Assembly (NCBI GenBank): GCA_045532735.1
Contig: JAZSGL010000091.1
Span: forward strand, 29,275 to 93,274
Length of the DNA: 64,000 bases
DNA from: Paludibacteraceae bacterium
GTDB lineage: Bacteria > Bacteroidota > Bacteroidia > Bacteroidales > Paludibacteraceae
Direction of reading: 5' to 3'
Part shown: positions 35,799 to 59,336 of the stretch, in pieces
Numbering within the stretch: position 1 is the stretch's first letter
Layout: every line of letters begins with the position of its first letter
Made by a program: the position numbers and the translations under genes
Notes under the pieces: model-generated
The model's database searches: none
Told to the model about the DNA's origin: nothing
What the model saw: only the letters and a program-made list of their open reading frames with translations

Positions 35799-35828
35799 AA
35801 AAATGGAGAGTGAGGCACTCTCCATTTT
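35799..35828. terminator. Bidirectional terminator between convergent genes
   Basis: atggagagtg / cactctccat, a 10-bp stem with a 3-nt loop, flanked by A and T runs. Confidence 0.8.
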
Positions 35829-38540: not shown

Positions 38541-38570
38541 AGATTGTATTTTATATTGTATATAGCGGTA

Positions 38571-38578
38571 CAAAGGTA
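38571..38578 (-). promoter_or_regulatory. -7 box (TAccTTTG on the minus strand) internal to PUL2
   Basis: The plus strand reads caaaggta. It lies 31 nt upstream of the ATG at 38540. Confidence 0.5.
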
Positions 38579-41348: not shown

Positions 41349-43118
41349 TTACCATCCCCACTCTGTATTTTGTGAGAGTGTATATCCTTTGGTCTTATAT
41401 AGTGTGATTTGGCCAGAAGGAATAGGGTTGATATAGTTGCGCTTGATAGGACGCTCGCGTTGACCTAAGGTATTGCGCAAGATATATCCTTCAGTAGCGT
41501 TAGGGTCTTCCAGTACTACCTCTGTACCTCTCTTAGGGAAATCGCTCAAGCGGATATATGCACCATAGCGGATATCAGGGTTACAACCATTCCATAGGTA
41601 ATCGAGTTTGCACCAACGCTTGAGGTCGTTGAGGCGGAAGCCTTCCATGCAGAGCTCTATGCGACGCTCACGGCGGATCTCCCATAACATAGCATCGGTA
41701 ATACCGCCATCGGCATTTTGCTCGATTTGCATGCGTTTAGGATCATCAAATACCACTCCATTGATAGCAGGTTGGCCACCTACTATTTGCAATGCAGGCA
41801 AGTTGACATCCTCGCGTGCGCGAATCTTATTGATTGATTTGTCCAGATCAGCCTGTGTAAATGCTTCACCAGCGAGCAAGTGCAATTCGTATGCTGCCTC
41901 GGCGTAGTTGAGCAATACCTCTGCATAACGCACACATGGTGCATCGGTGGTATTCTTCTCTCTAGCCCAAGTAGGTTCTGGTTTGTCCACCTTGCTGTCG
42001 TCCATAAACTTGCTCCAAGAATAGCCCGAAAGTGAGTAGTTGAATGGCTGATTGTCCTCGCCCTTGATATAATATTTAGGACGAATACATTGTGCTAGAC
42101 GAGCATCACGATTAGCAAAAAAGTCATTTGCAGTTGGTGCAACCCAATTAGCATCTTTGCAATATACAGGCAGACCATCGCTAGCCACGAATGCCTCGGC
42201 GAGTGAGCGGCTCAATCCCGCTTGTGCCTCGGTATAGGAATAAGCGAGGGTAGAGTGGGCTAGTACACCATCCACATAGTGGCGATGCATAATAATCTCA
42301 AGATTGCTACCTAGATCTTCGCTAGTAAAGAGAGCCTTGTAGGAAGGCGTGATTGAATATTTATTAGACTTCATCACGATTTCTGCAGCTGCTTTAGCCA
42401 TCGTCAAGCATTTTTTAGCCAATTCGGTATCGATATTGTGATACTTGAGGAAAGTACCCTCGCGCAACATAAGGCGAGATGCCATAGCAGCAACCACATA
42501 GCGGTTGACTTGCAAAGCACCATCATTCTCGCGTACGCTATCCATAGCATATTGGAAGTCTGCCATGATGCATGAGTCCACATACGCGCGTGGGTCGCGA
42601 TCCTTATACAGGTAGTCCATGTCCTCTTTGCTAGAGCTGAGCTTAGGAACGCGGTCATACCAAGGTACATCACCATAGCGGAAGACTAGGTTGCTATAGT
42701 AGCAAGCACGGAAGAAGCGTGCTACGCCACGCCAGTGGTTCTTAGCCGCAGGAGTAGCATCAATGCGATCAATGCTAGCTAGGGCATAATTGGCTTTGCG
42801 GATATTAGAAAAACTCCATGATCCGTCTGACTCTGGTACAACCTCAGGGGTAAGATTCTTTTGTTCTTGATCAGAGGCAAAATCATCGTTGGATGTTTGT
42901 CCCATTAGGAACGAACCATGTGATGCTCCTGAACCATATCCAGAGAAGATGGAGGTGTAGAAACCATACATATAGGTGCGAGCTTGATCCTCGTTTTGCC
43001 AATACTCCTCATCGGTGAAATCATCGTAAGGAGGTTGGTTGAGGAAACTGTCGCAACTGGTCATCGTAAAGGCCAATACTACAGCCCAAACGGATAGAAA
43101 AATATATTTTGTTTTCAT
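41349..43118 (-). CDS. susD: SusD/RagB-family lipoprotein
   Basis: MKTKYIFLSVWAVVLAFTMTSCDSF from the ATG at 43118 (43124 is also possible). The SusD-like C-terminus RERRIELCMEGFRLNDLKRW is present. Confidence 0.9.
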   Translation of the reverse strand: MKTKYIFLSVWAVVLAFTMTSCDSFLNQPPYDDFTDEEYWQNEDQARTYMYGFYTSIFSGYGSGASHGSFLMGQTSNDDFASDQEQKNLTPEVVPESDGSWSFSNIRKANYALASIDRIDATPAAKNHWRGVARFFRACYYSNLVFRYGDVPWYDRVPKLSSSKEDMDYLYKDRDPRAYVDSCIMADFQYAMDSVRENDGALQVNRYVVAAMASRLMLREGTFLKYHNIDTELAKKCLTMAKAAAEIVMKSNKYSITPSYKALFTSEDLGSNLEIIMHRHYVDGVLAHSTLAYSYTEAQAGLSRSLAEAFVASDGLPVYCKDANWVAPTANDFFANRDARLAQCIRPKYYIKGEDNQPFNYSLSGYSWSKFMDDSKVDKPEPTWAREKNTTDAPCVRYAEVLLNYAEAAYELHLLAGEAFTQADLDKSINKIRAREDVNLPALQIVGGQPAINGVVFDDPKRMQIEQNADGGITDAMLWEIRRERRIELCMEGFRLNDLKRWCKLDYLWNGCNPDIRYGAYIRLSDFPKRGTEVVLEDPNATEGYILRNTLGQRERPIKRNYINPIPSGQITLYKTKGYTLSQNTEWGW

Positions 43119-43156
43119 ATTCATACTATTACAAAGTTTCAACATTTCTGAGTTCA

Positions 43157-46100
43157 TTACAATGAGATTTGCAAACCGCAACTGAGTTGGCGGGTAAATG
43201 GATAGATACGACCGAATCCCATTGCACCACCATCACCTGCAGACGTAGCAGTTTCTGGGTCGATTGGCAAATCACCGAGGTGGTCTATCTCGCACACATT
43301 TTCAGCGCTGAAATATACGCGGAACTTATTAAAGTGCATTTTCTTGAGCACCTTGCTAGGTAAGCTATAACCAATGGTGATATTCTTCAATCGAAGATAA
43401 CTCATATCCAATAGATAGCGTGTTTGGCAAAGGAAGTTGAAGCCAGCAGCAGAATATTGTCCAGGTTGGTTGGTCTCTGTCAAGCGAGGATAATATGCGT
43501 CGGTGTTTTCAGGAGTCCAATAGTCGGTTTGGTGAGCATAGTATGTACCCTCAGAGAAGTTCCACCCAGGAATCATCATGGTACCAGTAGCCCAATATTG
43601 GCGTGAACCTACACCTTGGAAGAAGATGTTGAGGTCAACACCATACCACTCTGCACCGATCTTGAAGTTGTACTCATAGCGTGGAGTAGCGTTACCGATA
43701 CGGCTCCAGTCACCATGTTTGTCCACGGTCTTGTCGCCCCATGTGATCTCGCCATTGCCGTCTAGGTCTTTGTACTTCACGTCGCCAGGACCATACTTGT
43801 AGTCATAGCCATTACTCTTCTCGAAATATTCTTGCGAAGCAATGCCATCTACTAATGTTCCATCTGCGTTGAAATCACTCTCTTGGAAGAGACGGTCGGT
43901 AGTAAAGCCCCAGATCTCACCATAGATCTTACCCTCGTAGTTGCTACCATCGATGACAGATGAAGTCTTGCGTGGGTGCTTGGTAACGATGGTGATAGCA
44001 TCTGCTAGATTAGCAGAGATATTCAGGCGAAGTCCATTAGCAAAACGGTGGTGGTAGTCAATACCGAGTTCCCATCCGTTGGTGGTCAATTGTGCCGCAT
44101 TCTCGTAAGGAGCAGTAGCACCGAATGTGCTAGGCACTTCGCTACCACCTACTACCATGCCGTCGTTGATACGGCGATATATATCAAAACTTACGCCTAA
44201 GTCGTCGTTGAAGAAGCGTGTGTCAATACCACCATTGATGGTCTTGATGGTTTCCCAGGTAAATCCTTCTGCCAATGCAGTAGGAAGACCGAATGTAAGT
44301 TTGTTGGTTTCGCCTACAATCCAGCCGCTGTTGGATGAAGCCATAATAGCGCGGAAACGGTTGTCACCAATATCTTGGTTACCGATCGAACCATAAGAAG
44401 CACGCAATTTGAGGAAGCTCCAATATGGATTAAGAGCCTCCCAGAAGTTTTCCTCACTAGCTACCCATCCGAGTGAACCTGAAGGGAAGAAACCCCATTG
44501 TTGGTCGGTTGGGAAACGTGAAGAACCGTCGAAGCGTCCGTTCAACTCAATCAAGTAGCGGTTTTTGTAAGAATAGTTAGCACGTGCGAAGAAGCCCATA
44601 ATAGCCCAAGAAGTGTGGCTGCCATAGATAAACTTATCGCCGATAGAGAGGGAGATCTCAGGTTTGTTTTGATCCAACAAATCACGAATCTCTGCATTGA
44701 AATAATCCACCTCTTTGTACTCAATATTCATACCAGCAAAAGCGCTGAATGAATGTGCGTCGTTCCAGGTGTGTTTATAGCGAAGTACGGCGTTACCTGC
44801 GTGGTAGTTGCGGTTGTATTGGTATTTGTCCACCTTGTTGCGTCCGCTGGCTGCCCAGTTGTCCACGAGTGCCATACCACCACCACTCCAGAAATCCCAA
44901 CCACCGACAGTACCACCGCGTTGGGTGATATGTTGGTTGTCGAGGTTGTAAGTGTAGTCAATATCCAATGTCAAGTCAGGAGTACCCAACACGAAGGTTG
45001 CGCCTACAGAGAAACGCATATAGTCTTTGACATCTGTATCCATACTAGCTGCCGCAGTCTCAGTCACAGAGTTGCGGAATGGATGACCTTCGTAAGTACC
45101 ATATGGCATGATAGATGGCCAACGATATAGATAATAGAGTGCATCATAAGATGAGGTACCAAAATTAAATGGAGTCTCCAAGTTGGTGCGTGTATAGAGC
45201 GCTTTGCTACGTACCTTGAGCCAAGGTTTGATCTCGGTATCGGTAGAATAGTTAACTGAGAAACGGTTATATGAGTCAGGATTTACCTTTACTACACCAC
45301 CTTGTCCCATATAGCTGAGTCCCATATAGTAGTTGGTCTTGCCAGCAGTACCCGAGAAACTCATGTTGTGTTGTTGGCTGAATGAGAAATCTTTTACATA
45401 CTCATTAGCTGCATTCCAACTGCGATAGAAGTGAGGGATACCCGATTTGAGTACGAAGTCACGACCTTCTACCATCTCAGGACCTAGATCTACATTGCCA
45501 AACATTTGATCCCATTCGCGCATCATATCAATATCATCAGCATCCCATACCAAGCCGCATGCGTTTTGGAAAATGGTTGTACCTGGTGAACGACGATTGC
45601 GGGCATCCAATGCCATCTCTGCACCGATATACGATTTAGCGATCTCAGGCAAGGCAGTAGGAGTAGCCCATGAGAAGTTATTAGAATAGGTAACATTGAA
45701 TTTAGCATCTGTACCAGAACCAGATTTGGTGGTGATAAGAATCACACCAAATGCAGCGCGTGTACCATAGATACTAGAAGATGCAGCATCTTTCAATACA
45801 GAGATCTCCTTGATATCATCTGCGTTGATCATAGAGATGTCACTAATCTCTACTCCGTCCACGAGGATCAGAGGTTGGCTACCACCTTCGTTGAGCAATG
45901 TACCGACAGCACCACGAATACGGAATTTAGGTGTATCGCCCAAGCGGCCAGATGAGTTGGTAACAGTAAGACCAGCAACGGCACCTTGCATACCCGTACC
46001 GATGTTGGCAATAGGACGACCTTCGAGTTGGTCTTCTACGCTAATAGAACCTACTGCTCCTGTGAGGTTAGCTTTGCGTTGTGTGTCATAACCAACCACC

Positions 46101-46402
46101 ACAACCTCTTCCAATACACGAGTATCTTCGCGTAATACAACATTGATAGTAGAACGATTGTTGATACTCTCAGTGGCAGTAGCATAACCAATGTATGAGA
46201 ACTGCAATTGTGCATCGTTAGGAATATCAATGCTGTAGAAACCATCAAAGTCGGTGATTGTACCATTAGATGTGCCAGTCTGCACTACACTTACACCAAT
46301 CAATGGTTCGCCTTGAGCATCCGTTACTTGACCTGTAACGATAGCTGCATTGGCTACCAATACAGTAGCCAATGCGATGAATAGAAATGCTAATCGTTTC
46401 AT
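43157..46402 (-). CDS. susC: SusC/RagA-family TonB-dependent transporter
   Basis: VTGQVTDAQGEPLIGVSVVQ and VVVVGYDTQRKANLTGAVGSISV. No STN domain. The start codon overlaps the stop of the upstream giant gene (ATGA at 46399-46402). Confidence 0.95.
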   Translation of the reverse strand: MKRLAFLFIALATVLVANAAIVTGQVTDAQGEPLIGVSVVQTGTSNGTITDFDGFYSIDIPNDAQLQFSYIGYATATESINNRSTINVVLREDTRVLEEVVVVGYDTQRKANLTGAVGSISVEDQLEGRPIANIGTGMQGAVAGLTVTNSSGRLGDTPKFRIRGAVGTLLNEGGSQPLILVDGVEISDISMINADDIKEISVLKDAASSSIYGTRAAFGVILITTKSGSGTDAKFNVTYSNNFSWATPTALPEIAKSYIGAEMALDARNRRSPGTTIFQNACGLVWDADDIDMMREWDQMFGNVDLGPEMVEGRDFVLKSGIPHFYRSWNAANEYVKDFSFSQQHNMSFSGTAGKTNYYMGLSYMGQGGVVKVNPDSYNRFSVNYSTDTEIKPWLKVRSKALYTRTNLETPFNFGTSSYDALYYLYRWPSIMPYGTYEGHPFRNSVTETAAASMDTDVKDYMRFSVGATFVLGTPDLTLDIDYTYNLDNQHITQRGGTVGGWDFWSGGGMALVDNWAASGRNKVDKYQYNRNYHAGNAVLRYKHTWNDAHSFSAFAGMNIEYKEVDYFNAEIRDLLDQNKPEISLSIGDKFIYGSHTSWAIMGFFARANYSYKNRYLIELNGRFDGSSRFPTDQQWGFFPSGSLGWVASEENFWEALNPYWSFLKLRASYGSIGNQDIGDNRFRAIMASSNSGWIVGETNKLTFGLPTALAEGFTWETIKTINGGIDTRFFNDDLGVSFDIYRRINDGMVVGGSEVPSTFGATAPYENAAQLTTNGWELGIDYHHRFANGLRLNISANLADAITIVTKHPRKTSSVIDGSNYEGKIYGEIWGFTTDRLFQESDFNADGTLVDGIASQEYFEKSNGYDYKYGPGDVKYKDLDGNGEITWGDKTVDKHGDWSRIGNATPRYEYNFKIGAEWYGVDLNIFFQGVGSRQYWATGTMMIPGWNFSEGTYYAHQTDYWTPENTDAYYPRLTETNQPGQYSAAGFNFLCQTRYLLDMSYLRLKNITIGYSLPSKVLKKMHFNKFRVYFSAENVCEIDHLGDLPIDPETATSAGDGGAMGFGRIYPFTRQLSCGLQISL

Positions 46403-49400
46403 TTTATTACTTTGTTTCCGTTAATAATATACATACCTTGTGGCAAGTTGCTATCATCCTCGCCCAAATATTGGCCTGTGATAGTATAGATACCACTCTT
46501 GATGATTGCCTGGTTAGCATCCACATTTTCTAGACCTGTGGCAATGATAGTCAATTGATCATCGTCAGGAGCAGATACTGCGCATGTGTATTCAGTAGAA
46601 GGCAATGCCCAAGCACTTACGCTACCTGCGCCCGAAGCGTAGATATTACCTGCCACATCAAATACGATATTCCAGCATGATTGTGCGAAGCTGGTCTCAA
46701 TGCGACCTGCGGCCTCTAGTGAAGGAATGCCTTGTGCATCGTATTTCACATCCCAGATGAGAATGCCACCTGTGATAGCAGTAGCCATCTTGGTCATATC
46801 TTGGTTGAATCCAAGTGCACCACGGGTACGACCACCTAGCGCACCTGCTGAATTATAATCCACCTTACCCTCTTTGTTGATGTGAATCAAAGCAGGGATT
46901 TCTGCGTTGTCAGCAGAACGGTCTTGGCTGATCCACCAACCATACTCATCAGGTTGGATGAAACTGTTACCATTTTGTTGGAGGAAGTCAGCGTTGTCAA
47001 ATACGAGTTTGCTTGGTGCTTGTTCCCATGGTGTTGCGAGCTCGCCAATATTGTATTGATACAATCCCATAGGGTGAACGAGTCCAGGCATGTTGATATC
47101 CTCGTCAAAGGTGTAGATGACGCGGTCTTTGCCAGTGCCTTCTACCCAGATGTGGCTGATAGAACCGTGGATATCCTTACCATCCGCTGCGGTATAGATA
47201 CCATTTTCAGCAGGAGTACCGCCGAAGATAGGATTTAGTACGCTGGTGTTAGCAGGATCCATGATGTATGCGTTGTTAGGATATACATCTGCCCACTCTG
47301 AGATATACAACATATGGTCAGGACCTACAGTCACGCGGCATGGAGCGCTGACAGCGGCGCACCATTTGTCAGAAGTTACCTTCTCGATCATATCCATAGT
47401 AGCGTCGTAGATATAGATAGCTTTGTTCTCTAGCACCTTGTCACCACTAGACTCGGCCACATAGAGTTGTCCAAAGTATGGTGAGTTGTAATCATTGTCA
47501 ATAGCAAGACCCTTAGATGCCATCATCTTATCAGGCAAGTTGTCGATTGCGCAGAATGCTTCGCCCTCTCCTGGCAATGGTAAACTGGTGGCTTTGAGTG
47601 CCCAGTTGTAGGTGCCTTGTGGCAAGCCTGAGAGATTCACTTCAATGCGGTGTGCACCTTGTGTACGGTTCTCCTCTTGGTTGAGAGGACGGGTAGCTAC
47701 TACTTGTTTTGCTTCGTCTAGGAGTTGCAGTTCTAATCCAGCAGCAGGTGCATTGAGGACATAGGTGAGGATAACCTTGTTGTCAGACAAGGTAGCAGAT
47801 GACATGCTAGATGTATATGCATTCAATCCCTCTTTGCGTACGCCGGTTTGTACGCCTGGATCTTCTTCCTCTTCTTCACCCGAAACGCGTGGATAAGACT
47901 CGCGGTTGAGAGGTACGCGTGTGGTATAGGTGTTGTTGGTCTTTGGCAATGAGTACACCATCAATCGCTCGTTGGTGTTGGATACGATATAGAGGTTACC
48001 AGCAGCGTCGAAGTCCATACCCATGGTTACTACTTCGTTTTCGCTCCATTTGATGATATATTTCTCGGTCAATGTAGGTTTGCCAGTAGCATCGTATTCT
48101 ACTTCCCAAATCTTCACGGTACCATATTCAGTACCCAATGCTACAAGCGAGCCGTCCGCATTGACAGCCATACCACCTTGTTGAACAGCATCCACACCAT
48201 TGTTGGAGATATTGAAGTCCACTTCACCCTTAGCGTTCACGTGGATCAAACCAGGCTTAGCGTAACTTGAGTTATAACGGTATTGACTCATAAAGAAACC
48301 GCCGTGTTGGTCGTATGCCAACTGGCCACTACCGTTCTCCATGAATACATTGGTCATATCCTTATAGATGGTAGCAGTAGGCACTTGCTTCCATGGCAAG
48401 CTATCGAGTTCACCAATATTGTATTGCATGATATTACTATATACAGTACCCATGGAGTTATCGCGGTCATAGGTATAGAGCACTTCGTCTTTGCCTAAAC
48501 CAGTTACATAGCAGTCCATAATAGGGTTGGTAACAACTTTTGAACCAGACTTCAATTGGCCAGTTGATTTGCTGCGTTTACCACCAAAGAGAGTGATGAA
48601 GTTGCCTTCAGGCTTAGCAGCCTCCATGATATAGATACCAGCAGAAGTATATGATGAGCTAGGTACGAATACATCGCCGTTAGGAGCTACAGCAGGACGG
48701 GTAAGTGCCCATTGGTAGTTGGTACCGGTGTTGTTAGCACCCCATTCTACATTACCATGCCAAGCATTAGCACCTTGGTTGGTGATATCTTGGAAGTCGC
48801 TACTGAGGACATAGACGCCCATGCTAGAGTTACGGAAGGATTCAGCTGTACCGTATTCGCATTGTCCAGCCACAGAGTTAGTCACGTAAACGCGACCGAA
48901 ATAAGGGCTAGCAGGTGTTTTGTCAACAGCTACACCGCGAGGAGCGTAGAATTGGAATATCTCATCATCGTTGCTCACCTTCACAGGGAAAGCTACAGGG
49001 CGTGCAGTAGCAGTAATGCTGTAGTGATCAAATGCTGTCTTACCGAATGGGTTAGCTACTTTGTTCGCACCTTTCTTGAGCGCACCAACAGATTTTGTAT
49101 CCACAATTTCGTTGTTCTTCTCAATAGAAATAGTGACATCGGTAGCATCCTCGTTGAGACGGAAGATGAAGTTCTTACCATCATAGTCCACCTCACCTGC
49201 ATAGATATTTGCTACAGCAGAAGAGAGTGTTTGGTAGTGTTGCATTACTCCATCAGCCATGGTGATAATGTGCATGGTATAACCATCTACCCAAGCCATA
49301 GTATGTACTTGTGGTGCATCGGTTGCGGTAGTTCCAGGATAAGGATCACTGGCAACCTTGGCATTAGCAACACCCTCGGTCACATCATACAATTGGAATT

Positions 49401-51525
49401 GGATGCCATTGTTTGTTGGCTGAGCCATATATGCGTGATCAGCATAGCGCAAGAAGGAAGCACCTTGCTTAGTACAAACATCTCCTGTAGGAGAGAAAGT
49501 AAGTTGCTTATTGGTCAAATCCTCTTTTGCAGTAGAGGTTGCTACTTTTGCTTTGTTAGCGTCCTCATCGTATGTAATCGTATAGAGGGTAGTACCTTCG
49601 CCGAGGTAGTATTTACTCTCCCAGCGTGCTGCGCTAACTGCAAATGAATTACCTTTGACACCCAAAACAGAGAATAGTTTGGTAGGGTTTTGCATATTTT
49701 CATCCCACACATAGAAAGTACCTTGGTCTTTCACTTTAGCTACGAGGTAGTCATCCGCAGTGAATCCCATGTCGCAAAGTTCGACACCAGTAGGAAGTGG
49801 TAACGGAGTGGTAACGGTAAAGTCAAGAGAGTTTTGGGTGATCTTTCCATTTGCCAAAATATAGATGTATCCGTTACGATATAGCGCGCGCGTGATATTA
49901 TTAGGTGTAGTCTTTACTTCGTTGACCAATTCGAATTCATATTTGTCCAATGCAGCAGCATCGTTATCGGCTTGTGGATAATCCTCTACATGCATACGAA
50001 CATTCTTTAGGCGCACTTTGACACCAGCAATTTCTTCTGCAGCAACAGTGATTTCTTGAGAATAGGTGCTATATTTATCTTTCGTAACAACCAATTTGTA
50101 TGTACCAGGGGTAAGGTCATAGAAGGCAAAAATACCATTGTACCAATCATCGGTAGTTTTTTCGGCAATTTTCTTTGTGCCTTGATAGAGTTCTACCTTA
50201 GCGCCGTTCAAAGGCAACCATTGGTCGTCGGAATTCTGTACATATACGAATTTAGGTTCGCCCAATACATCCACGAGTTCGTTGCTCGATTTCACCCAAC
50301 CGCTAATGGTAGCAGTTTGTGGCAATTTCACATCAAACCACTTGTGGAAGTGGTGGAACATACGCAAAGCTTCGAGTTTGCAATAATCATCGTTCATCAA
50401 ACGGTGTGTCTCTGGAGCATAGTCGTGGAAACTACCTTCGCTAAGGAATCCAGGAACAGTAAGTGGACGAAGAACTCCCAATCCCATATCATCACCATAG
50501 AAAGTGAAGTCGCCGCGCAGCAATGGTTTAGGACTGGTCCAAACGGTGAGTTCGTTCAAGATTTGTAAATTACCGCTACTTTCAGCCATCTTATCGCTGA
50601 GTGGCACAGTAGGTTGGTCGTTGTATCCATGATAGAGCATCAATAGATAGTTGGTTCGTCCGTTCAATGCATTAGAGTGGATAGATAGGAAGTGATCCAC
50701 ATCGTTTGCGTTGGCTTCTTCTGCAATAGCGCTGAGATCACGGTCGTCACCATTGCGCAATTCTTCTTTCTCTTGCGCTGTAGCGCCAGGGTAATATTCT
50801 AAATCACGAATACCAGAGTTGTTGGTGTGGCGTGACATGATAACAGTAGCGCCTGCTTTCTTGAGCATCTCTTCGAGTGCTAAAGCTTTTGAGAGGTTGG
50901 ATTTGCTCTCCCAATAACCTGCAGGGTTGCTCCATGTTTCAGGTACAGGAACGGTCCAGCAACTACGGTCGTTAGCATCATAACCACCGTGACCAGCATT
51001 TAGATAGATCTTGATACCATTGAAGTTGGAGCGTGCAGATGTAGCATATTTGCGTGCTGCTAAGCGGATTGCTTGGCGTTGTTTCTCGCTAGCAATACGA
51101 GCTTCTTCTTTTTGAATGAAGTCTTGCTTTTCTACTTCGTTAAGATCGCGAGTTACTTTACCATCAATGGATCGTGAGATGTAACGAATATAGTCAATCT
51201 CATCGTGATCTTTGTAAAACTCTTGCATACCCGATACATGGTTGTTGTCCAACCATTTAGGAGCATTCATTCGTCCCATAGAGCGGACATTTTGGCCGTT
51301 GATATCGCACACGAATGTGCCATAACGAGCGGTGACATAGACAAGGTGCTTGCCGTCAGGCGAAACACTAGCCCAGAAATAACTAGCATCGTCTCCATTA
51401 GGAGCCAATACATAACTGCTTTCTCCGTCAGTTACCAACATCTTCTGATCTTGGATACTCACAGTCGGTTGCGCTACTAGCAGAGTAGTGAGCAGCAAAC
51501 TGAAAAATAAAGTAAGTTTACGCAT
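46399..51525 (-). CDS. Giant (1708 aa) secreted protein: PD40-like N-terminus, Amidase_3 domain, CarboxypepD_reg-like domain, two Ig/propeller supermodules, T9SS-type C-terminal domain
   Basis: The signal peptide is MRKLTLFFSLLLTTLLVAQ, followed by SPDGKHLVY. The amidase motifs are listed in the next feature. TPGTYKLVVTKDKYS marks the CarboxypepD_reg-like domain. The supermodules lie at 47908-49212 and 46567-47826. The tail is LPQGMYIINGNKVIK. Confidence 0.9.
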   Translation of the reverse strand: MRKLTLFFSLLLTTLLVAQPTVSIQDQKMLVTDGESSYVLAPNGDDASYFWASVSPDGKHLVYVTARYGTFVCDINGQNVRSMGRMNAPKWLDNNHVSGMQEFYKDHDEIDYIRYISRSIDGKVTRDLNEVEKQDFIQKEEARIASEKQRQAIRLAARKYATSARSNFNGIKIYLNAGHGGYDANDRSCWTVPVPETWSNPAGYWESKSNLSKALALEEMLKKAGATVIMSRHTNNSGIRDLEYYPGATAQEKEELRNGDDRDLSAIAEEANANDVDHFLSIHSNALNGRTNYLLMLYHGYNDQPTVPLSDKMAESSGNLQILNELTVWTSPKPLLRGDFTFYGDDMGLGVLRPLTVPGFLSEGSFHDYAPETHRLMNDDYCKLEALRMFHHFHKWFDVKLPQTATISGWVKSSNELVDVLGEPKFVYVQNSDDQWLPLNGAKVELYQGTKKIAEKTTDDWYNGIFAFYDLTPGTYKLVVTKDKYSTYSQEITVAAEEIAGVKVRLKNVRMHVEDYPQADNDAAALDKYEFELVNEVKTTPNNITRALYRNGYIYILANGKITQNSLDFTVTTPLPLPTGVELCDMGFTADDYLVAKVKDQGTFYVWDENMQNPTKLFSVLGVKGNSFAVSAARWESKYYLGEGTTLYTITYDEDANKAKVATSTAKEDLTNKQLTFSPTGDVCTKQGASFLRYADHAYMAQPTNNGIQFQLYDVTEGVANAKVASDPYPGTTATDAPQVHTMAWVDGYTMHIITMADGVMQHYQTLSSAVANIYAGEVDYDGKNFIFRLNEDATDVTISIEKNNEIVDTKSVGALKKGANKVANPFGKTAFDHYSITATARPVAFPVKVSNDDEIFQFYAPRGVAVDKTPASPYFGRVYVTNSVAGQCEYGTAESFRNSSMGVYVLSSDFQDITNQGANAWHGNVEWGANNTGTNYQWALTRPAVAPNGDVFVPSSSYTSAGIYIMEAAKPEGNFITLFGGKRSKSTGQLKSGSKVVTNPIMDCYVTGLGKDEVLYTYDRDNSMGTVYSNIMQYNIGELDSLPWKQVPTATIYKDMTNVFMENGSGQLAYDQHGGFFMSQYRYNSSYAKPGLIHVNAKGEVDFNISNNGVDAVQQGGMAVNADGSLVALGTEYGTVKIWEVEYDATGKPTLTEKYIIKWSENEVVTMGMDFDAAGNLYIVSNTNERLMVYSLPKTNNTYTTRVPLNRESYPRVSGEEEEEDPGVQTGVRKEGLNAYTSSMSSATLSDNKVILTYVLNAPAAGLELQLLDEAKQVVATRPLNQEENRTQGAHRIEVNLSGLPQGTYNWALKATSLPLPGEGEAFCAIDNLPDKMMASKGLAIDNDYNSPYFGQLYVAESSGDKVLENKAIYIYDATMDMIEKVTSDKWCAAVSAPCRVTVGPDHMLYISEWADVYPNNAYIMDPANTSVLNPIFGGTPAENGIYTAADGKDIHGSISHIWVEGTGKDRVIYTFDEDINMPGLVHPMGLYQYNIGELATPWEQAPSKLVFDNADFLQQNGNSFIQPDEYGWWISQDRSADNAEIPALIHINKEGKVDYNSAGALGGRTRGALGFNQDMTKMATAITGGILIWDVKYDAQGIPSLEAAGRIETSFAQSCWNIVFDVAGNIYASGAGSVSAWALPSTEYTCAVSAPDDDQLTIIATGLENVDANQAIIKSGIYTITGQYLGEDDSNLPQGMYIINGNKVIK
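50386..51015 (-). other. N-acetylmuramoyl-L-alanine amidase (Amidase_3) domain within the 1708-aa protein
   Basis: It spans aa 171-380: IKIYLNAGHGGYD (His), YWESKSNL (Glu), FLSIHSNAL (His) and FLSEGSFHD. This is the canonical Zn-ligand order. Confidence 0.8.
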
Positions 51526-51541: not shown

Positions 51542-53467
51542 TTAATTGATTATATTGCCTAGTAAGTTGTATGTTTTGTCACCTCGCTTGATGTACACAT
51601 TACCATTCTCTACCCATTTAACAGAGTTCTCAGTTCCTACAATGATATCCTCTACTGCATTCTCTAAGGAAATAGTAACTCGTTGTGTTACGCTCCATGT
51701 ATCTCCAGCATTAGGGATTCGTGTTTTTACTCGCCAGTAGTAATCACCTAGAGGTAGATATTGTAGGTTGATTCGCAGTTTGGTTTCAAATGAAGTGTCA
51801 GTAACCTCTTGTGCGAAGATGATCTGTTGCATGTCGGGATCTTTAGCAAATTGAATGATATAACTATCAGCTCCCTCTACCGCCTTCCAACGGAAAGTAA
51901 ATGGAAGTTTTCGGATTATTCCGTCATCTGGATAAAGTCCAGTAGTTGCTATTGGTTGACGGAGTGGCTCGTTTAGTATACGCAGTGCATATTCATTGTT
52001 ATATTTGTCTAAGACACTGACAGCTATCTGGTGTGTAGAAGCAGAAACTTCAGTTGGTAATTCAAAGGTAGATGTGTAGGAAACTCCCACCAACATATCT
52101 CCGCGTGAATACACATTAGGCAAGTGGATAGAGTCATTAGGTACTGCGTAAATAGCAAAATGTAGGTCATTGTCTGAATGAGTCCACGATAATGTTTGAT
52201 TATTGATGGTAAGATTTTCTACCATTGTGCGTTCCTTAGCAGGTTTCCAGTTGATAGCAGGTGGTAAGGAGATGTGATGAAACTCAGCGGTTTCCTTGGT
52301 AAGGTTGACGCGCAATTTGCTACTATTGGTCCATGCTCTTGTGTTGTAGAATATAGCACCAGGTGCACCATCTTTCACTGTGCGATTGTACACTAGCTGA
52401 TTACGAATCTCGGTAGCGCTAAAAGTACCGTCTTCGTATTTATATAACGCCATACTAGAGTAGAAATGCTTGCCAAAACGATTGCAAATATCGCCCCACC
52501 ATTTGCTAAGTTTTTTGTAGTCTTGTCCGCCCCCAATCTTCCAATAGAGTTGTGGAGAGAGGTAATCTACGGTACCTTCCTCTAGCCAAGCAACAGGGTC
52601 ACAGTAGATTTCGGCGTACATGTTTCCTCCGGTGATGTTGTAAGGAAGAGTAATGCCTCTCTTGGATGCAACACTACTATCTGTGGTCCAAATACCAAAA
52701 GGAGAAACACCAAAAGTGACCCATGGTTTGACAGATTGAATGGTGTCATATACTGCTTTGATCATCTTATTGACATTTTGGCGTCGCCAATCGCCCACAT
52801 TCATATCAGCTGGTTTGTATTTAGCTACACTAGCAGCATCTTGATTGGTGGTACCCCCATATGGATAAAAATAATCGTCCATAAGAATACCATCCACATC
52901 GTAATTATTGATGATGTCGCCTACAACCTCTTTGATTCTTTGTAGCACTTCTGGTTGTGCAGGGTCAAGGTAGATGTCATTTTTGTAGTAGAGCAACCAC
53001 TCAGGATGCGTATGTTTGTAATTGAGTTTAGTGGTATCATCGGTGCCAGTCCAATCATATCCGCCACGCTTGCCATAGCGGTAAGGATTGATCCAACCAT
53101 GACAGGTTAAACCTCGTTTGTGACACTCTTCAATACAAAATTGGAGTGGATCCCATCCTGGGTCTACTCCACGCCCATTGTTCAAATAGCTTGACCATGG
53201 TTCATAACTTGATTTGTATAAAGCATCACATGCAGGACGGATATGTAGTAGTACTGTGTTCATTCGGAAGTCTACGCACTTATCCAATAGTCCGATTAGT
53301 TCTTTTTGTTGCGCTTCCTTGCCCTTAGTTGTGGATACTGGCCAATCTATGTTAGCCACTGCGGTTAACCATGTAGCACGCATTTCACGCTTTGGATAAA
53401 CGGCGGATTCTCCAAAGCCCCACATAGCAGTGAGCATAAAAACTAAAAATAGAGTTACTTTTCTCAT
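51542..53467 (-). CDS. Glycosyl-hydrolase-like family 10 (GHL10/DUF187) protein with C-terminal Ig-like region and sorting-like tail
   Basis: REMRATWLTAVANIDWP and HGWINPYRY are typical of GHL10. The tail is VEDIIVGTENSVKWVENGNVYIKRGDKTYNLLGNIIN. Confidence 0.75.
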   Translation of the reverse strand: MRKVTLFLVFMLTAMWGFGESAVYPKREMRATWLTAVANIDWPVSTTKGKEAQQKELIGLLDKCVDFRMNTVLLHIRPACDALYKSSYEPWSSYLNNGRGVDPGWDPLQFCIEECHKRGLTCHGWINPYRYGKRGGYDWTGTDDTTKLNYKHTHPEWLLYYKNDIYLDPAQPEVLQRIKEVVGDIINNYDVDGILMDDYFYPYGGTTNQDAASVAKYKPADMNVGDWRRQNVNKMIKAVYDTIQSVKPWVTFGVSPFGIWTTDSSVASKRGITLPYNITGGNMYAEIYCDPVAWLEEGTVDYLSPQLYWKIGGGQDYKKLSKWWGDICNRFGKHFYSSMALYKYEDGTFSATEIRNQLVYNRTVKDGAPGAIFYNTRAWTNSSKLRVNLTKETAEFHHISLPPAINWKPAKERTMVENLTINNQTLSWTHSDNDLHFAIYAVPNDSIHLPNVYSRGDMLVGVSYTSTFELPTEVSASTHQIAVSVLDKYNNEYALRILNEPLRQPIATTGLYPDDGIIRKLPFTFRWKAVEGADSYIIQFAKDPDMQQIIFAQEVTDTSFETKLRINLQYLPLGDYYWRVKTRIPNAGDTWSVTQRVTISLENAVEDIIVGTENSVKWVENGNVYIKRGDKTYNLLGNIIN

Positions 53468-53495: not shown

Positions 53496-53503
53496 CAAAG
53501 TTA
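53496..53503 (-). promoter_or_regulatory. -7 box (TAacTTTG on the minus strand) for the PUL2 operon
   Basis: The plus strand reads caaagtta. It lies 29 nt upstream of the ATG at 53467. Confidence 0.5.
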
Positions 53504-53638: not shown

Positions 53639-53646
53639 TACCTTTG
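53639..53646 (+). promoter_or_regulatory. -7 box TAccTTTG for the GH20 gene
   Basis: Exact match about 60 nt upstream of the ATG at 53707. Confidence 0.5.
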
Positions 53647-53706
53647 TCGAGAAAATTGTTCTTTCGTAGAGCAGTATATTTTATAAGAACTTTTCAATTT
53701 AATGTT

Positions 53707-55917
53707 ATGAAAACTTTCTTTCGCTTATTTACAATCGCGGCTTTAATGGCAATGGTGTCATGTACCAAACAAATTCCTATGTCTATCCATTGGGAGATGG
53801 GTAAAAATGATGTCAAGCCAGGCATTTGTGAGCTTTATTACACGATTACTAATCTCTCTGATCAACCGATCACCAATGAAGGATGGACTTTGTACTTCAA
53901 TTACATGTCACTACACCCTATTTACACAGAGGGTGATCAGATTTTGCAAACAGAATTGCAAGCGAGTTATCATAGCATTACGCCAACTGCAGATTTTTTG
54001 CCATTGATGCCAGATAGTAGCCGTACTTTTAAGCTTCTATTCAAGGGTAATGTTATTCGTCAGACATCGCGCCCAGAGGGCTTTTTCTTGGTAAAAAATA
54101 AGAACGGAAAAGAGATTGGTAAGCCCATTTCGATTCCATGTACCTATGCGCCTTTTACACGCCCGGAGCAGATGAAGCGTGGTATCGTGACATGGGAAAA
54201 GACGCCTTATGCAGAAGGAGCATATGTGTTTGATTATGTGCAACATATATTAGATGCTCCTACTAATAAAAATGTGCAACCTCTTTTGCCGCAGCCAAAG
54301 CAGATTCAGTATACAGAAGGTACTTGCGAAGTGGCTAATGCAGAGGTAATTACTCGTACAGACGCGAATATGGTTAGCGAGGGATATCACATGGTTATCG
54401 CACCTACTACTATTACTATCGAGGCAAGTGATGAGGCGGGTATTTTTTATGCTCAACAGACTATCAAGCAATGGGGCGAGGTGATACCTTGTGGTGAGGT
54501 GACTGACTATCCAGATCTTCATCATCGCGGCATTATGTTGGATGTGGTGCGCAACTATTATCCAGTGGATTCTATTTTCCGCATATTGGACATCATGGCA
54601 TACCACAAACTGAATGTACTGCACTTTCACTTGACCGATGATGAGGCATGGCGTTTGGAGATTCCAGGTTTGCCACAACTGACCGATATTGGTTCTAAGC
54701 GAGGCTATACCACAGATGAAAGCGAATGCCTACTGCCAATGTACTGCGGCGGTTGGGACCCCGATGCACCAACCACAGCCAATGGTTATATTACACGCGA
54801 GAAGTATATCGAATTGCTTAAGTACGCTGGCGAGCGTCATATCCGTGTGATTCCTGAAATCGATATGCCTGGGCATATGCGTGCTGCCAAGAAAGCCATG
54901 GGTAAGCTATTGACAGACAGTGCGTTTGATGCACGCGTATATAAGTCTGCACAAAACTATACCGACAATGTGATTGATGTGAGCAAGCCTTATGCGGTGG
55001 AGTTTATCGATCATGTGGTGACGGAGATTGTTAAGATGCACGAGGAGGCAGGTCATCCGCTGACGATCTTCAATATCGGAGGTGATGAAGTACCAAAGGG
55101 TGCGCTGACGAAAGAGGAACATCAAGCGTTTATTGATGCCGTTTTGGAGATACTGAAGCGCTACAACCTGCAACCAATGGGTTGGGAAGAGATTGATCAT
55201 TTCTGCCAGCCAGAGAGTGGTGCTATCTGCTATGCTTGGCTCAACAGTGAGAGCAAACCGATGCAATTGGCAGAGGCTGGTTATCAAGTAGTTATCGCAA
55301 CTGCTAGTCATCTGTATTTTGACTTTGCGTATTGCAACCACCACGAGGAGAAAGGACTCAGTTGGGGCGGATATACCGACGAATACCGTTCGTTTGACTG
55401 GCAGCCCGCTCAACACCCCAATATCATCGGTATGAATGCCCAACTATGGGGCGAGGTTATCCGCTCGTTTAGTCAAGTAGAATGGCAGATATATCCAAAG
55501 ATCTATGGTTTGGCAGAGCGTGCATGGAATAACCGCAGTGCACTCACCTTGGGTGATTATAATCAATTAGTATATAATGTGTTTGTTCCACAATTGGCAA
55601 TTAGCGGTCGCAATTTCCATATTCAACAGCCAGGTATCAGGTTGGTAAAGACAAAGAACGAACAATTGCAGTTAGATAAGAGTCATGTTCTCCTTGAAAT
55701 GAATAAGGTTATGACTGGTGGAGAACTCCTATATTGTCTTGATGATGGACCTTGGAGGGTATATAATACTATTGTTGCCATCCCTGCTGAAACTCAAATC
55801 GTGAAGGCAAAGGTGCGTTACTTAGGTAAAGAGAGTAACACTACTTGGCTGTGGCTCAATGCCAATCATGAGGTGGATAGTCAGGCAGTAGAGAGGAATA
55901 CGGGCGCAACTTTCTGA
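53707..55917 (+). CDS. Glycoside hydrolase family 20 beta-N-acetylhexosaminidase
   Basis: Lipobox MAMVSCTK from the ATG at 53707. HRGIMLDVVRNYY, LHFHLTDDEAWRLEIPGLP and catalytic FNIGGDEV are present. Confidence 0.9.
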   Translation: MKTFFRLFTIAALMAMVSCTKQIPMSIHWEMGKNDVKPGICELYYTITNLSDQPITNEGWTLYFNYMSLHPIYTEGDQILQTELQASYHSITPTADFLPLMPDSSRTFKLLFKGNVIRQTSRPEGFFLVKNKNGKEIGKPISIPCTYAPFTRPEQMKRGIVTWEKTPYAEGAYVFDYVQHILDAPTNKNVQPLLPQPKQIQYTEGTCEVANAEVITRTDANMVSEGYHMVIAPTTITIEASDEAGIFYAQQTIKQWGEVIPCGEVTDYPDLHHRGIMLDVVRNYYPVDSIFRILDIMAYHKLNVLHFHLTDDEAWRLEIPGLPQLTDIGSKRGYTTDESECLLPMYCGGWDPDAPTTANGYITREKYIELLKYAGERHIRVIPEIDMPGHMRAAKKAMGKLLTDSAFDARVYKSAQNYTDNVIDVSKPYAVEFIDHVVTEIVKMHEEAGHPLTIFNIGGDEVPKGALTKEEHQAFIDAVLEILKRYNLQPMGWEEIDHFCQPESGAICYAWLNSESKPMQLAEAGYQVVIATASHLYFDFAYCNHHEEKGLSWGGYTDEYRSFDWQPAQHPNIIGMNAQLWGEVIRSFSQVEWQIYPKIYGLAERAWNNRSALTLGDYNQLVYNVFVPQLAISGRNFHIQQPGIRLVKTKNEQLQLDKSHVLLEMNKVMTGGELLYCLDDGPWRVYNTIVAIPAETQIVKAKVRYLGKESNTTWLWLNANHEVDSQAVERNTGATF

Positions 55918-55961
55918 TAGAATAAAAACGCGTTTCCCTTGCAAATGTGCAAAATTTTCTG

Positions 55962-55969
55962 TACCTTTG
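55962..55969 (+). promoter_or_regulatory. -7 box TAccTTTG
   Basis: Exact match 23 nt upstream of the ATG at 55992. Confidence 0.5.
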
Positions 55970-55991
55970 CACGCTAAAACGAAAATAATAT

Positions 55992-57917: not shown

Positions 57918-58341
57918 TATTCTACCATTGATATTATTTGTCCTTCTCGGTATTGTTATCCTTGTTATCTTTGAACTACGAGCGAGGAAAGCCGCCGATA
58001 GCGAGCAAGGCGAGCGTCCTATAGCCAATAGCGAAGCGTCCGACAGTCGTAATGAAGACGACGGCTGCTGTGGCGAGCACTTGGTTTGCGAGAGAGAAAC
58101 ACTTCTTCAAACCAATGCTGAAATCATCTACTACGATGATGAGGAGTTGGACGCACTAGCAGGTATAGATGCAACTAACTACACCCAAGAGCAATATCAA
58201 ATGATTCGTGAAGTGTTTGAAACACTTAAAGCGAGTGATGTTCCAGGTTGGGTACGCAGTATTCAACTGCGTAATATTCAATTGCCGCTAGACATACGCG
58301 AAGAGGCGTTGCTCATCGTGGTCGAACGACGAAAAGCATAA
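57907..58341 (+). CDS. Small membrane-anchored hypothetical protein
   Basis: N-terminal TM segment [18 protein letters not shown]. It overlaps the parE stop by 11 nt and the convergent CPBP gene by 64 nt. Confidence 0.45.
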
Positions 58342-59192: not shown

Positions 59193-59259
59193 ATAATAAT
59201 AGATAATAAATTGTGGTAAAAAAAAGAGCAGTCGTGAACGCACGAGTTGCTCCTATTTG

Positions 59260-59333: not shown

Positions 59334-59336
59334 CAG

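Follow-up and report, generated by a model that had tools for sequence, protein, structure and literature searches.

The locus raises a simple question: why should an Amidase_3 domain be carried on a 1708-aa protein whose gene runs directly into susC? The window, by which we mean the whole 64,000-nt stretch of Paludibacteraceae DNA analyzed here, derives from the 1.95-Mb genome of an uncultured organism (a MAG, 83% complete). The explanation we favor, with a probability of about 0.7, is that the locus is a peptidoglycan PUL in which the 1708-aa protein acts as an exported, constitutively active zinc MurNAc-L-alanine amidase and provides the peptide-stripping step; a locus of this nature would explain the presence of the amidase. 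The enzyme most likely strips peptides off the cell walls of other bacteria, so that the sugar chains can enter via the adjoining SusC/SusD. A first-pass annotation of this DNA missed the peptidoglycan-PUL nature of the locus, and its overall interpretation is borne out in part.

The operon and its junction with susC

The amidase fusion protein is encoded by an uninterrupted ORF, the second of eight genes in the order GHL10, amidase, SusC, SusD, DUF4623 lipoprotein, FISUMP-like protein, NamZ, and Na+/solute symporter, with the following features.

53644..55917, plus strand: divergent GH20 beta-N-acetylhexosaminidase lipoprotein (lipobox MVSC; PF00728 at 8e-80)
53496..53503, minus strand: candidate Bacteroidetes-type -7 promoter box, TAACTTTG (pattern match only), 29 nt before the GHL10 ATG
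51542..53467, minus strand: gene 1, GHL10 protein, 641 aa (PF02638 at 2e-61)
46399..51525, minus strand: gene 2, amidase fusion protein P0001, 1708 aa (ORF with translation, Pfam)
46399..46402, minus strand: ATGA overlap of the amidase TGA and susC ATG (read from the sequence)
43157..46402, minus strand: SusC-type TonB-dependent transporter, 1081 aa (TIGR04056 at 820 bits, TIGR04057 signature, Plug and barrel domains)
41349..43181, minus strand: SusD-family lipoprotein (PF07980 at 8.9e-31, PF14322)
39567..41303, minus strand: DUF4623 lipoprotein (LFVGC lipobox; PF15416 at 1.8e-61), in the position of a surface glycan-binding protein
38616..39500, minus strand: 294-aa exported protein with a C-terminal motif (GLYWTSS...AVRLV), presumably FISUMP/DUF1566-like
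37356..38573, minus strand: NamZ (GH171) exo-beta-N-acetylmuramidase (PF07075 at 5e-74, PF20732 at 4e-34)
35847..37295, minus strand: sodium:solute symporter (PF00474 at 5e-24)
35800..35828, minus strand: strong intrinsic-terminator-like hairpin (13 pairs and a T run) at the operon end

The operon thus begins behind a single candidate promoter box and ends at a single strong terminator; the -7 consensus of Bacteroides promoters is TAnnTTTG. SusD likely starts at MKTKYIF..., with its lipobox cysteine within TMTSC. The DUF4623 gene follows SusD in all related loci. The GH20 gene is a conserved divergent partner. A Pfam search of the 294-aa protein gave no match, and its family has at least 14 paralogues in the genome. 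From its context, the symporter is a candidate inner-membrane MurNAc/GlcNAc importer. We found no regulator near the amidase locus, whether of the HTCS, SusR, or ECF type, and saw no AmpG in the 64-kb window.

The GHL10 protein consists of a signal peptide, a GHL10 TIM barrel, and a short C-terminal 'NGxxYIxRGxxTYNxxG' tail, and is a candidate peptidoglycan lytic transglycosylase or muramidase by analogy with Cwp19 of Clostridioides difficile, a characterized GHL10 member that is a peptidoglycan lytic transglycosylase (PMC6016235). The two share the catalytic domain, but Cwp19 is an autolysin whose CWB2 repeats anchor it, whereas the protein here has Ig-like or fn3-like extensions, the short tail, and an amidase partner. 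It would supply the glycan-cleaving enzyme that the locus otherwise lacks.

At the junction, the minus strand reads ...GTA ATA AAA TGA, with ATG AAA CGA... starting one base earlier, so that the overlap reported in the first-pass annotation is real, as is the SusC identity of the downstream ORF. The fixed co-expression ratio that it drew from this overlap does not follow: a 4-nt overlap implies none, and because ATGA junctions are common in this genome (53 between ORFs of at least 150 aa), this one says little about stoichiometry. Overlaps of 4 nt also occur in loci L016, L018, and L059.

An intact catalytic site on a multidomain scaffold

The protein was modeled in two parts, aa 1-520 (AF2; pLDDT 85.5, pTM 0.87) and aa 521-1708 (pLDDT 83.8). 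Its layout is as follows.

51472..51525, minus strand: Sec signal peptide, aa 1-18 (MRKLTLFFSLLLTTLLVA then QP), from the translation; helix 2-14 in the model, predicted cleavage site
51145..51465, minus strand: PD40-like beta domain, aa 21-127, then a long helix, aa 130-159 (pLDDT >90)
50383..51009, minus strand: Amidase_3 catalytic domain, aa 173-381 (Pfam, conservation, fold)
50005..50313, minus strand: transthyretin-like (CarboxypepD_reg) domain, aa about 405-507 (PF13620 at 9.4e-9, aa 437-507)
49228..49965, minus strand: first beta-propeller-like region, aa about 521-766 (all-beta, pLDDT ~90, multi-propeller fold matches)
47911..49203, minus strand: module A, Ig-like domain and ~6-blade beta-propeller, aa about 775-1205 (model)
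47815..47886, minus strand: acidic disordered linker, aa 1214-1237 (SGEEEEEDPGVQTG...; pLDDT <50), the fusion joint
46567..47808, minus strand: module B, second Ig-like domain and beta-propeller, aa about 1240-1653 (model and L018 homology)
46402..46548, minus strand: C-terminal tail, aa about 1660-1708 (...GLENVDANQAIIKSGIYTITGQYLGEDDSNLPQGMYIINGNKVIK), with a likeness limited to the final strands of a T9SS type A domain

The amidase assignment made from the letters alone holds: Pfam Amidase_3 matches aa 173-381 at 45 bits (E 1.6e-11; cut-off 27 bits). The proposed zinc ligands H179 (GHGG), E206 (YWESK), and H283 (SIHSNA), together with the catalytic E363 (LSEGSF), are invariant in alignments of 15 and of 52 family members, the most divergent of which are about 40-55% identical, and an alignment through the genome's own canonical amidase places the three ligands opposite GHGG, REKD, and SIH in E. 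coli AmiC. In a Foldseek search the aa 1-520 model resembles CwlD, AmiC2, CwlV, Rv3717, and LytH (TM-score 0.77-0.87 on target); the top matches are helix-less amidases (CwlV 0.87, AmiC2 0.85), whereas AmiA reaches 0.62. H283 and E363 are 80 aa apart; the corresponding distance is 111 aa in the AmiC-like amidase of this genome and 108 aa in AmiC itself. The shorter spacing leaves no room for an autoinhibitory-helix insertion. These residues and the modeled fold support a catalytically intact Amidase_3 domain, whose activity we infer, on a very large multidomain exported protein.

With the helix-less enzymes (CwlV, 1jwq; Nostoc AmiC2, 5emi; M. tuberculosis Rv3717, 4m6i; C. difficile CwlD, 7rag) the domain thus shares the fold, the H-E-H zinc site, the catalytic Glu, and the short spacing from third ligand to Glu. 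It differs in sequence (14-21% identity) and in two insertions specific to its family (H179-E206, 27 vs 16 aa; E206-H283, 77 vs 55 aa), and in being embedded among a PD40-like head, a transthyretin-like domain, and three propellers.

The PD40-like, CarboxypepD_reg-like, and Ig/propeller modules were also recovered. At L018 a stand-alone 281-aa gene matches the PD40-like segment (aa 28-124) over its residues 147-238 with 49% identity, and the homologue in L045, a 301-aa gene, matches PF07676 (PD40) at 4e-8. The CarboxypepD_reg-like domain shows strands across 405-506 in the model, where Foldseek finds similarity to CnaB domains and to the TTL domain of carboxypeptidase D, and the aa 521-1708 model has three beta-propellers and two Ig-like domains. 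Modules A and B are an internal repeat (27% identity, E 6e-33), and the module A cassette is also present in other secreted proteins of the genome.

A housekeeping role in cell separation or wall turnover, with the gene adjoining susC by chance, is suggested by Amidase_3 being the family of AmiA/B/C, but we give it hardly any credence: a separate, canonical AmiC-like amidase of 272 aa, which has the long regulatory insertion, is encoded elsewhere in the genome; the fusion gene is absent from 30 of the 41 genus genomes, and it keeps its synteny with GHL10, SusCD, and NamZ among relatives. The first-pass annotation had weighed such a role together with orthologues outside PULs; the protein is not the division amidase, but more distant family members do lie outside PULs, without SusCD, in T9SS cargo clusters.

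Fusion, spread, and export

In the more distant relative at L018, three separate genes encode the PD40-like part, the amidase, which there has a canonical T9SS domain, and an Ig-plus-propeller protein. The last of these, a 1111-aa propeller protein with the same tail, is the one whose gene overlaps susC. Module B and the tail have 41% identity to aa 653-1111 of this protein. These comparisons show that three pieces were fused into the scaffold: a PD40-like gene, an amidase gene, and, from a two-module Ig-plus-propeller gene, the C-terminal half. The susC overlap belongs historically to the C-terminal Ig-plus-propeller module; the coupling is there, as first annotated, but was not originally the amidase's own.

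The arrangement recurs, with gene order and ATGA junction identical in 10 species-level genomes of the lineage. Shorter forms, of 1256-1269 aa, and split variants also occur among relatives; the 1256-aa forms (L054) keep the first propeller-like region and stop at the linker position, with a tail. GHL10 lies directly upstream of the amidase in 7 of 7 annotated related loci and in 9 of the 10 loci of the 10-genome set, the tenth being cut off, and in another Bacteroidales family the order is amidase, SusC, SusD, GHL10.

The T9SS-type tail named in the first-pass annotation was not recognized: PF18962 has no match even at E<=1 or E<=10, and TIGR04183 reaches 14 bits (E 0.037, cut-off 23) over profile positions 26-57 only. 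No other ORF in the genome has this tail. Orthologues carry a canonical T9SS CTD or another short tail at the equivalent position, paralogues also carry canonical CTDs there, and the genome encodes SprA and CTD-bearing proteins. With the tail below the T9SS threshold, surface location is something we infer: the most likely destination of the amidase and the GHL10 protein is the cell surface or the medium.

An unlikely, but not far-fetched, alternative is that SusCD imports peptide-bearing muropeptides or short fragments, which the amidase de-peptidates in the periplasm just before NamZ and GH20 act. The unrecognizable tail would fit, as would the lack of a lipobox cysteine at the signal peptide for surface lipoprotein export (the +1 residue is Gln) and the strong periplasmic amidase activity inferred in T. 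forsythia (PMC7670621). Against it are the canonical CTDs in orthologues and paralogues of equal architecture, and ~1200 aa of propeller and Ig modules that are common to other tail-bearing secreted proteins and fit binding of an insoluble substrate; cross-linked sacculus pieces would also be unlikely SusC cargo.

A proposed peptidoglycan utilization pathway

In the peptidoglycan-PUL reading, a single transcript would start at the candidate promoter ahead of GHL10 and end at the terminator behind the symporter gene. Sec would export the Cwp19-type GHL10 enzyme and the amidase, whose propeller and Ig modules may hold it on foreign cell-wall material; GHL10 would cut glycan strands and the amidase remove stem peptides. 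SusD and the DUF4623 lipoprotein would then capture denuded GlcNAc-MurNAc oligosaccharides for import by SusC, NamZ and GH20 would free MurNAc and GlcNAc in the periplasm, and the Na+ symporter would take up both. Since NamZ enzymes need peptide-free glycan (NamZ1 and NamZ2 are inactive on peptide-bearing peptidoglycan; 10.1101/2021.12.02.470905), an amidase has to act first. In the cytoplasm, MurK/MurQ from a second such locus on another contig would burn MurNAc. With murA and murB missing, MurNAc probably doubles as a source of UDP-MurNAc for building the cell's own wall. We found no experimental description of such a locus in the literature.

Classical Sus-like PULs of Bacteroidota similarly combine a SusC/SusD pair, a lipoprotein in the SGBP position, an inner-membrane transporter, surface endo-acting enzymes, and periplasmic exo-glycosidases in one operon. 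Here, in contrast, the substrate would be a peptide-cross-linked glycan, which would make a peptide amidase a core enzyme; the outward-acting enzymes are tail-bearing Sec substrates rather than lipoproteins, enzymes lie upstream of susC, and a nearby regulator of the usual types is missing. The amiE-nagZ-namZ-murQRP operon of Bacillus subtilis also has an amidase, an exo-GlcNAc-ase, and an exo-MurNAc-ase feeding MurQ (10.1101/2021.12.02.470905), but AmiE is of another amidase family and exo-lytic on the Gram-positive cell's own wall, with no outer membrane or SusCD and with a PTS importer. Closer in metabolism is the ampG-namZ1-murT-murK-murQ salvage of Tannerella forsythia, with its NamZ-type exo-muramidase, MurK-like kinase, MurQ etherase, inner-membrane sugar importer, and exo-enzymes needing prior amidase action. 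In the papers on that organism consulted here, the amidase was inferred only from activity in cell extracts and the MurNAc source of MurT was called unclear (PMC7670621), and no outer-membrane importer for peptidoglycan fragments is named, whereas the genes here, in an uncultured gut Paludibacteraceae lineage, center on SusC/SusD pairs and include an exported GHL10 enzyme plus a giant amidase.

The amidase and GHL10 could instead be secreted chiefly as a bacteriolytic weapon against living, mainly Gram-positive, neighbors, with SusCD uptake secondary. The five large amidase paralogues, five GHL10 copies, and NAGPA phosphodiester glycosidases of the genome resemble a lytic arsenal, and the lack of an autoinhibitory insertion and the targeting-like propeller cassettes are in keeping with this. 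We nonetheless regard it as quite improbable as the primary function, as this amidase copy alone shares an operon with an importer, two exo-glycosidases, and a symporter, which points to harvesting, and no immunity gene is apparent; killing and peptidoglycan harvest are in any case compatible.

Of the 41 genomes of the genus, 17 carry murA together with murB and 20 others carry murQ; none combines murA/murB with murQ. The amidase is found in 11 of the 20 murQ+ genomes (9 lack a close orthologue) and in none of the 17 murAB+ genomes (Fisher 2e-4, the genomes not being independent), and the association with murAB loss may simply be clade structure within the genus. The restriction of the amidase to genomes without murA/murB, and the exclusivity of murA/murB and murQ, suggest a MurNAc auxotrophy resembling that of T. 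forsythia, which lacks MurA/MurB. In one murAB+ relative, murB-murA lie behind the equivalent murK-like gene. The genome's own second such locus, on contig C49, runs murK-like, murQ, SusC, SusD ... GHL10 ... NAGPA, amidase, and the genome also encodes a candidate AmgK/MurU pair.

The Amidase_3 domain of the fusion protein

The gene directly ahead of susC (46399-51525, minus strand) encodes P0001, a 1708-aa protein for which the coordinates, Amidase_3 domain, motifs and susC overlap reported in the first-pass annotation all held, with an ORF open for 1708 codons, a Pfam match to the domain, and a junction sequence that reads as described. Pfam places PF01520 (Amidase_3) at aa 173-381, scoring 45 bits where the cut-off is 27 and 49.3 bits when the whole genome was scanned, followed by a transthyretin-like CarboxypepD_reg (TTR) domain at aa 437-507. 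Conservation of the zinc ligands on proper alignment had been named beforehand as a test of the assignment, and all of 52 relatives share H179, E206, and H283; together with E363 these residues are unchanged in alignments of 15 and of 52 relatives with identities down to ~40-55%. In an hhalign comparison, the P0001 motifs GHGG / YWESK / SIHSNA fall on GHGG / VKEKD / SIHTNA of the genome's canonical amidase, which aligns residue for residue with Escherichia coli AmiC and AmiA (the GHGG / rEKD / SIHaDA positions of AmiC). Counting along this alignment, the ligand residues correspond to AmiC H196, E211, and H265, which we take to be the known AmiC zinc ligands. E363 (VPGFLSEGSF) is the catalytic Glu in the (L/V)xE(x)GF strand and lies inside the Pfam-aligned stretch and outside the hhalign alignment.

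The fold points the same way. A phmmer search of aa 1-511 against PDB sequences returned no match, and a profile built from the whole family reached CwlD only weakly; the amidase structures were reached by fold search with an AlphaFold2 model of aa 1-520 (pLDDT 85.5, pTM 0.87). Foldseek matched this model to 7rag, 5emi, 1jwq, and 4rn7 at E 1.8e-10 to 3e-9 and TM (target) 0.77-0.87, the solved structures resembling the central domain including CwlD (E 1.8e-10), CwlV (TM 0.87), AmiC2 (0.85), and Rv3717 (0.82). P0001 thus has the family-model match, ligands, catalytic Glu, and modeled fold of an Amidase_3 enzyme, and MurNAc-L-Ala cleavage is its predicted activity.

P0001 has 80 aa between its third ligand and its catalytic Glu, vs 111 in the genome's AmiC-like amidase and 108 in AmiC, and neither this spacing nor the fold matches indicate the autoinhibitory helix insertion of AmiA/AmiB/AmiC; the better fold matches are to amidases without that helix. 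From the spacing and these matches we infer that the P0001 amidase is probably not kept inactive in the manner of the division amidases. There are also family-specific insertions, with 27 vs 16 residues between the first and second ligands and 77 vs 55 between the second and third. The domain is a candidate for a compact, apparently unregulated peptidoglycan amidase.

Gene content and recurrence of the locus

The amidase gene lies in a cluster encoded on one strand, with a divergent neighbor.

Genes of the locus
51542-53467, minus strand: GHL10 protein, same strand as the amidase
Same strand, rest of the cluster: amidase, SusC, SusD, DUF4623 lipoprotein, 294-aa exported protein, NamZ, sodium:solute symporter
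Divergent from the GHL10 operon: GH20 hexosaminidase lipoprotein

The ORF downstream of the amidase is SusC (TIGR04056, 820 bits, plus the TIGR04057 SusC/RagA signature), and it forms an adjacent pair with SusD (PF07980 and PF14322). Peptidoglycan is the glycan indicated by each of the co-localized enzymes: GHL10, Amidase_3, NamZ (GH171), and GH20. Cwp19, a characterized GHL10 member, is a peptidoglycan lytic transglycosylase (PMC6016235), and NamZ enzymes are exo-muramidases that cut peptide-free glycan but not peptide-bearing sacculi (10.1101/2021.12.02.470905). Given a Cwp19-type activity for GHL10 and the NamZ requirement for peptide-free glycan, the gene set reads as a full path that would cut and strip peptidoglycan, import the glycan, free MurNAc and GlcNAc, and take them up, a path in which the amidase is a logically necessary early step. 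The amidase family, PULs, NamZ, Cwp19, and Tannerella forsythia salvage are already known; in the full-text literature, subscription journals aside, we found no description of a Sus-type peptidoglycan locus or of a P0001-like amidase architecture. Peptidoglycan is among the most abundant gut glycans, and the locus supplies concrete candidates step by step: GHL10, the P0001 amidase, SusC/SusD, and DUF4623.

A TAACTTTG box lies 29 nt ahead of the GHL10 start, the sole strong terminator follows the symporter gene, and a sigma-70 promoter scan performed no better than chance. No HTCS, SusR-like, or ECF/anti-sigma regulator was seen in the ORFs of at least 150 aa that were scanned to both sides of the locus, at 12466-21551, 30588-35704, and 53644-63654; a dedicated regulator could lie elsewhere. 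The 294-aa protein (38616-39500, minus strand) has no Pfam match and at least 14 paralogues (31-48% identity) across the genome, and its C-terminal motif GLYWTSS...AVRLV is reminiscent of FISUMP/DUF1566 domains.

Whether the susC-coupled arrangement recurs in related genomes was a question raised by the first-pass annotation, and the same order with an identical ATGA is present in ten species-level Paludibacteraceae genomes (84-94% identity). More widely, the amidase+TTR core occurs in 10 of 301 sampled Bacteroidales genomes, nearly always beside a PD40-like region and often with GHL10 near. One genome of another family has the order amidase, SusC, SusD, GHL10; a second genome has a cluster (L045) of NAGPA, GHL10, PD40, amidase, and NAGPA genes without SusCD, in which the T9SS CTD model matches all except the PD40-like gene, two of them below cut-off; and SusCD is likewise missing beside the GHL10 and amidase genes of a further relative. 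Because the GHL10-amidase pair recurs both with and without SusCD, it appears to be the conserved core, with Sus coupling typical of the Paludibacteraceae.

Other genes accompany this pair. In one relative (L061, which carries P0085), GHL10-amidase-SusC is directly preceded by an LD-carboxypeptidase gene (Peptidase_S66; 3679-4554) and by an operon of ATPase and two permease genes for an ABC transporter, and the LD-carboxypeptidase fits a use of the freed stem peptides. NAGPA-type phosphodiester glycosidases are grouped with GHL10 and an amidase in L045 (G029:C1:4156500-4176400) and on contig C49 of the window's own genome (G000:C49:30296-32593); we speculate that NAGPA could free MurNAc of wall polymers attached through GlcNAc-1-phosphate, as in linkage units of the teichoic-acid type.

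MurNAc metabolism across the genus

In a set of 41 genomes from the genus, 17 have both murA and murB, which are adjacent, 20 others have murQ, and no genome has murA/murB together with murQ; the remaining four, which are incomplete, lack all three genes. Of the high-quality genomes, 13 of 20 are without murA/murB. Close orthologues of the amidase are found in 11 genomes, all with murQ and without murA/murB (Fisher 2e-4, a value inflated by shared ancestry).

In the window's own genome, murQ belongs to a single-strand cluster (C49:27219-48967; L021, L058) consisting of a murK-like kinase gene, murQ, SusC, SusD-like, a 284-aa protein, a PKD protein, and GHL10+fn3, and continuing with a 1291-aa Flg_new protein, NAGPA, and a 1019-aa PD40+Amidase_3+TTR+Big_5 protein; by its gene content this is a putative second locus of the peptidoglycan type. 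We had considered that the large amidase paralogues might all lie away from SusC, and rejected this, since the C49 paralogue shares its cluster with a second SusC/SusD pair. A fused NagB/PIG-L gene is divergent from the C49 cluster.

The window's own genome is an 83%-complete MAG of an uncultured organism. An assembly gap could account for missing murA and murB. However, in a relative that has both genes (L068, G327:C12:216000-234000), the murK-like gene that on C49 lies ahead of murQ-SusC is followed by murB-murA, which disfavors a gap. The comparison suggests that murB-murA was swapped in situ and that a MurNAc auxotrophy may have resulted. We put at a little under even odds (about 45%) the fuller reading, that a large sub-lineage of this gut Paludibacteraceae genus represents a second, independent MurNAc auxotrophy in which murB-murA was replaced in situ by murQ and a peptidoglycan PUL, with the window operon as its scavenging front end. 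The operon would act at the outer membrane and outside the cell, where the secreted amidase and the GHL10 lytic enzyme would feed a SusCD importer of denuded glycan.

The genus genomes that have this murA/murB-less pattern resemble Tannerella forsythia, a MurNAc auxotroph without MurA/MurB (PMC7670621). In T. forsythia, the scavenging amidase is inferred from cell-extract activity only, the source of the MurNAc substrate of MurT is called unclear, and the account names no outer-membrane importer for the fragments (PMC7670621). If our proposal is correct, the operon covers a step left unresolved in this T. forsythia work. The genomes of the lineage suggest an obligate dependence on the walls of other bacteria.

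A regex search for AmgK/MurU in the window's own genome found none. An APH-family search identified a 483-aa APH+RapZ_C protein beside a divergent 257-aa NTP_transferase (C78:93018-96353; L067), which may provide an AmgK/MurU-like route to UDP-MurNAc; the pair is a family-level match present in all 41 genus genomes, and is thus non-discriminating.

Module history, the susC junction, and the C-terminal tail

P0001 begins with a Sec signal peptide (aa 1-18, MRKLTLFFSLLLTTLLVA, followed by QP) and has no lipobox, as read from the translation. In the aa 1-520 model, a small domain made up of beta strands (aa 21-127) comes next, and a long helix connects it to the amidase and the TTR domain. The remainder (aa 521-1708, pLDDT 83.8) is modeled as a first propeller-like region, then two copies of an Ig-like domain with a ~6-blade propeller, separated by an acidic disordered linker (aa 1214-1237), and last a short beta tail; by fold it matches multi-propeller proteins of a generic kind. 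The two Ig+propeller copies share 27% identity (E 6e-33), and further copies of the cassette are present in the 2684-aa protein (22289-30343) and in proteins encoded on C57, C84, and C96. No relationship between the DUF4623 lipoprotein and the propeller modules was detectable (best E 0.28).

A more distant relative (L018/L019) has a divergent GH20 and then, in this order, GHL10, a PD40-like gene of 281 aa, an amidase of 1191 aa with a canonical T9SS domain at its end, a protein of 1111 aa built from two Ig+propeller modules, SusC, SusD, and DUF4623. P0001 aa 28-124 is 49% identical to part of the 281-aa PD40-like protein, and aa 1247-1708 matches the 1111-aa protein in its C-terminal module at 41% identity, the same tail included. 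On these sequence comparisons, P0001 is best described as a fusion of three genes. The four-base susC overlap in L018 belongs to the 1111-aa gene, not the amidase gene, and intermediate forms of 1256-1269 aa without the second module have the same tail and also the susC overlap; these split and intermediate forms argue that the overlap arrived with the tail-bearing module and that the amidase joined later. This history is an example of rebuilding such systems from separate parts. The split layout also occurs in the window's own genome, where a PD40-like gene of ~275 aa and a large amidase gene (1354, 1247, and 829 aa) are paired three times in tandem at C57:1754-16077 (L020), with a serine beta-lactamase/PBP-family gene after them.

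At the junction itself, the amidase end ...GTA ATA AAA TGA shares four bases (ATGA, 46399-46402) with the ATG AAA CGA... start of susC. The proposal that this overlap implies a fixed co-expression ratio does not stand, since ATGA junctions are ordinary here, with 53 between ORFs of at least 150 aa in the genome; what the overlap does indicate is that the two genes belong to one operon and are perhaps coupled in translation.

The end of P0001 had been called a T9SS-type tail, which the profile searches do not bear out. TIGR04183 gives 14 bits (E 0.037) under a cut-off of 23, matching only profile positions 26-57 in the second half of the model, vs 56.5 bits for the canonical CTD of the relative P0118 in the same search; PF18962 has no match in the P0001 tail, whether by genome scan (E<=1) or by hmmscan (E<=10). 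Relatives of the same architecture (P0075-P0081 and P0111-P0124) carry PF18962, and the T9SS CTD of the L045 amidase scores 43 bits. Endings at this position are of three kinds across the family: canonical type A; GIYT..GQYLG....G.YIINGKKVIK; and K.I.NGQL.I.RNG..YN..G..V. Neither of the two short types is matched by a Pfam or NCBIfam model. The window's own genome has the GIYT...YIINGKKVIK tail in one ORF only, and the K.I.NGQL-type tail, ~40 aa long, ends at least 31 ORFs of at least 150 aa, the GHL10 neighbor included.

Occurrences of the full pattern '[TG].[VI]E[ND][VI] ... K.I.NGQL.I.RNG..YN..G..V'
51542-51670: GHL10 C-terminus
30150-30343: end of the 2684-aa ORF
Elsewhere: 29 other ORFs

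The K.I.NGQL-type tail stands in for the canonical T9SS CTDs of orthologues, and is thus a candidate sorting signal. The genome encodes SprA, the T9SS translocon, in a 2497-aa ORF with SprA_N at 587 bits, and at least five of its proteins have a proper CTD over cut-off. By analogy and from the position of its tail, surface or extracellular delivery of P0001 is plausible. A strict pairing of the GIYT...YIINGKKVIK tail with the 4-nt susC overlap was rejected, as P0113 has the tail and another gene next. The two occur together in P0001, P0029, P0054, and the L018 1111-aa protein, and a bolder suggestion is that the short tail, traveling with the susC overlap, might dock a non-lipidated enzyme onto the SusCD complex.

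Just upstream of the gene for the 2684-aa secreted protein, a DUF3987 gene lies beside a DUF6088/AbiEii (type IV toxin-antitoxin) pair (17987-21551), a segment that looks mobile or island-type. Downstream of a GH3 gene, a 285-aa protein (14838-15695, plus strand) carries both leucine-rich repeats of the BspA type and a TonB C-terminal domain.
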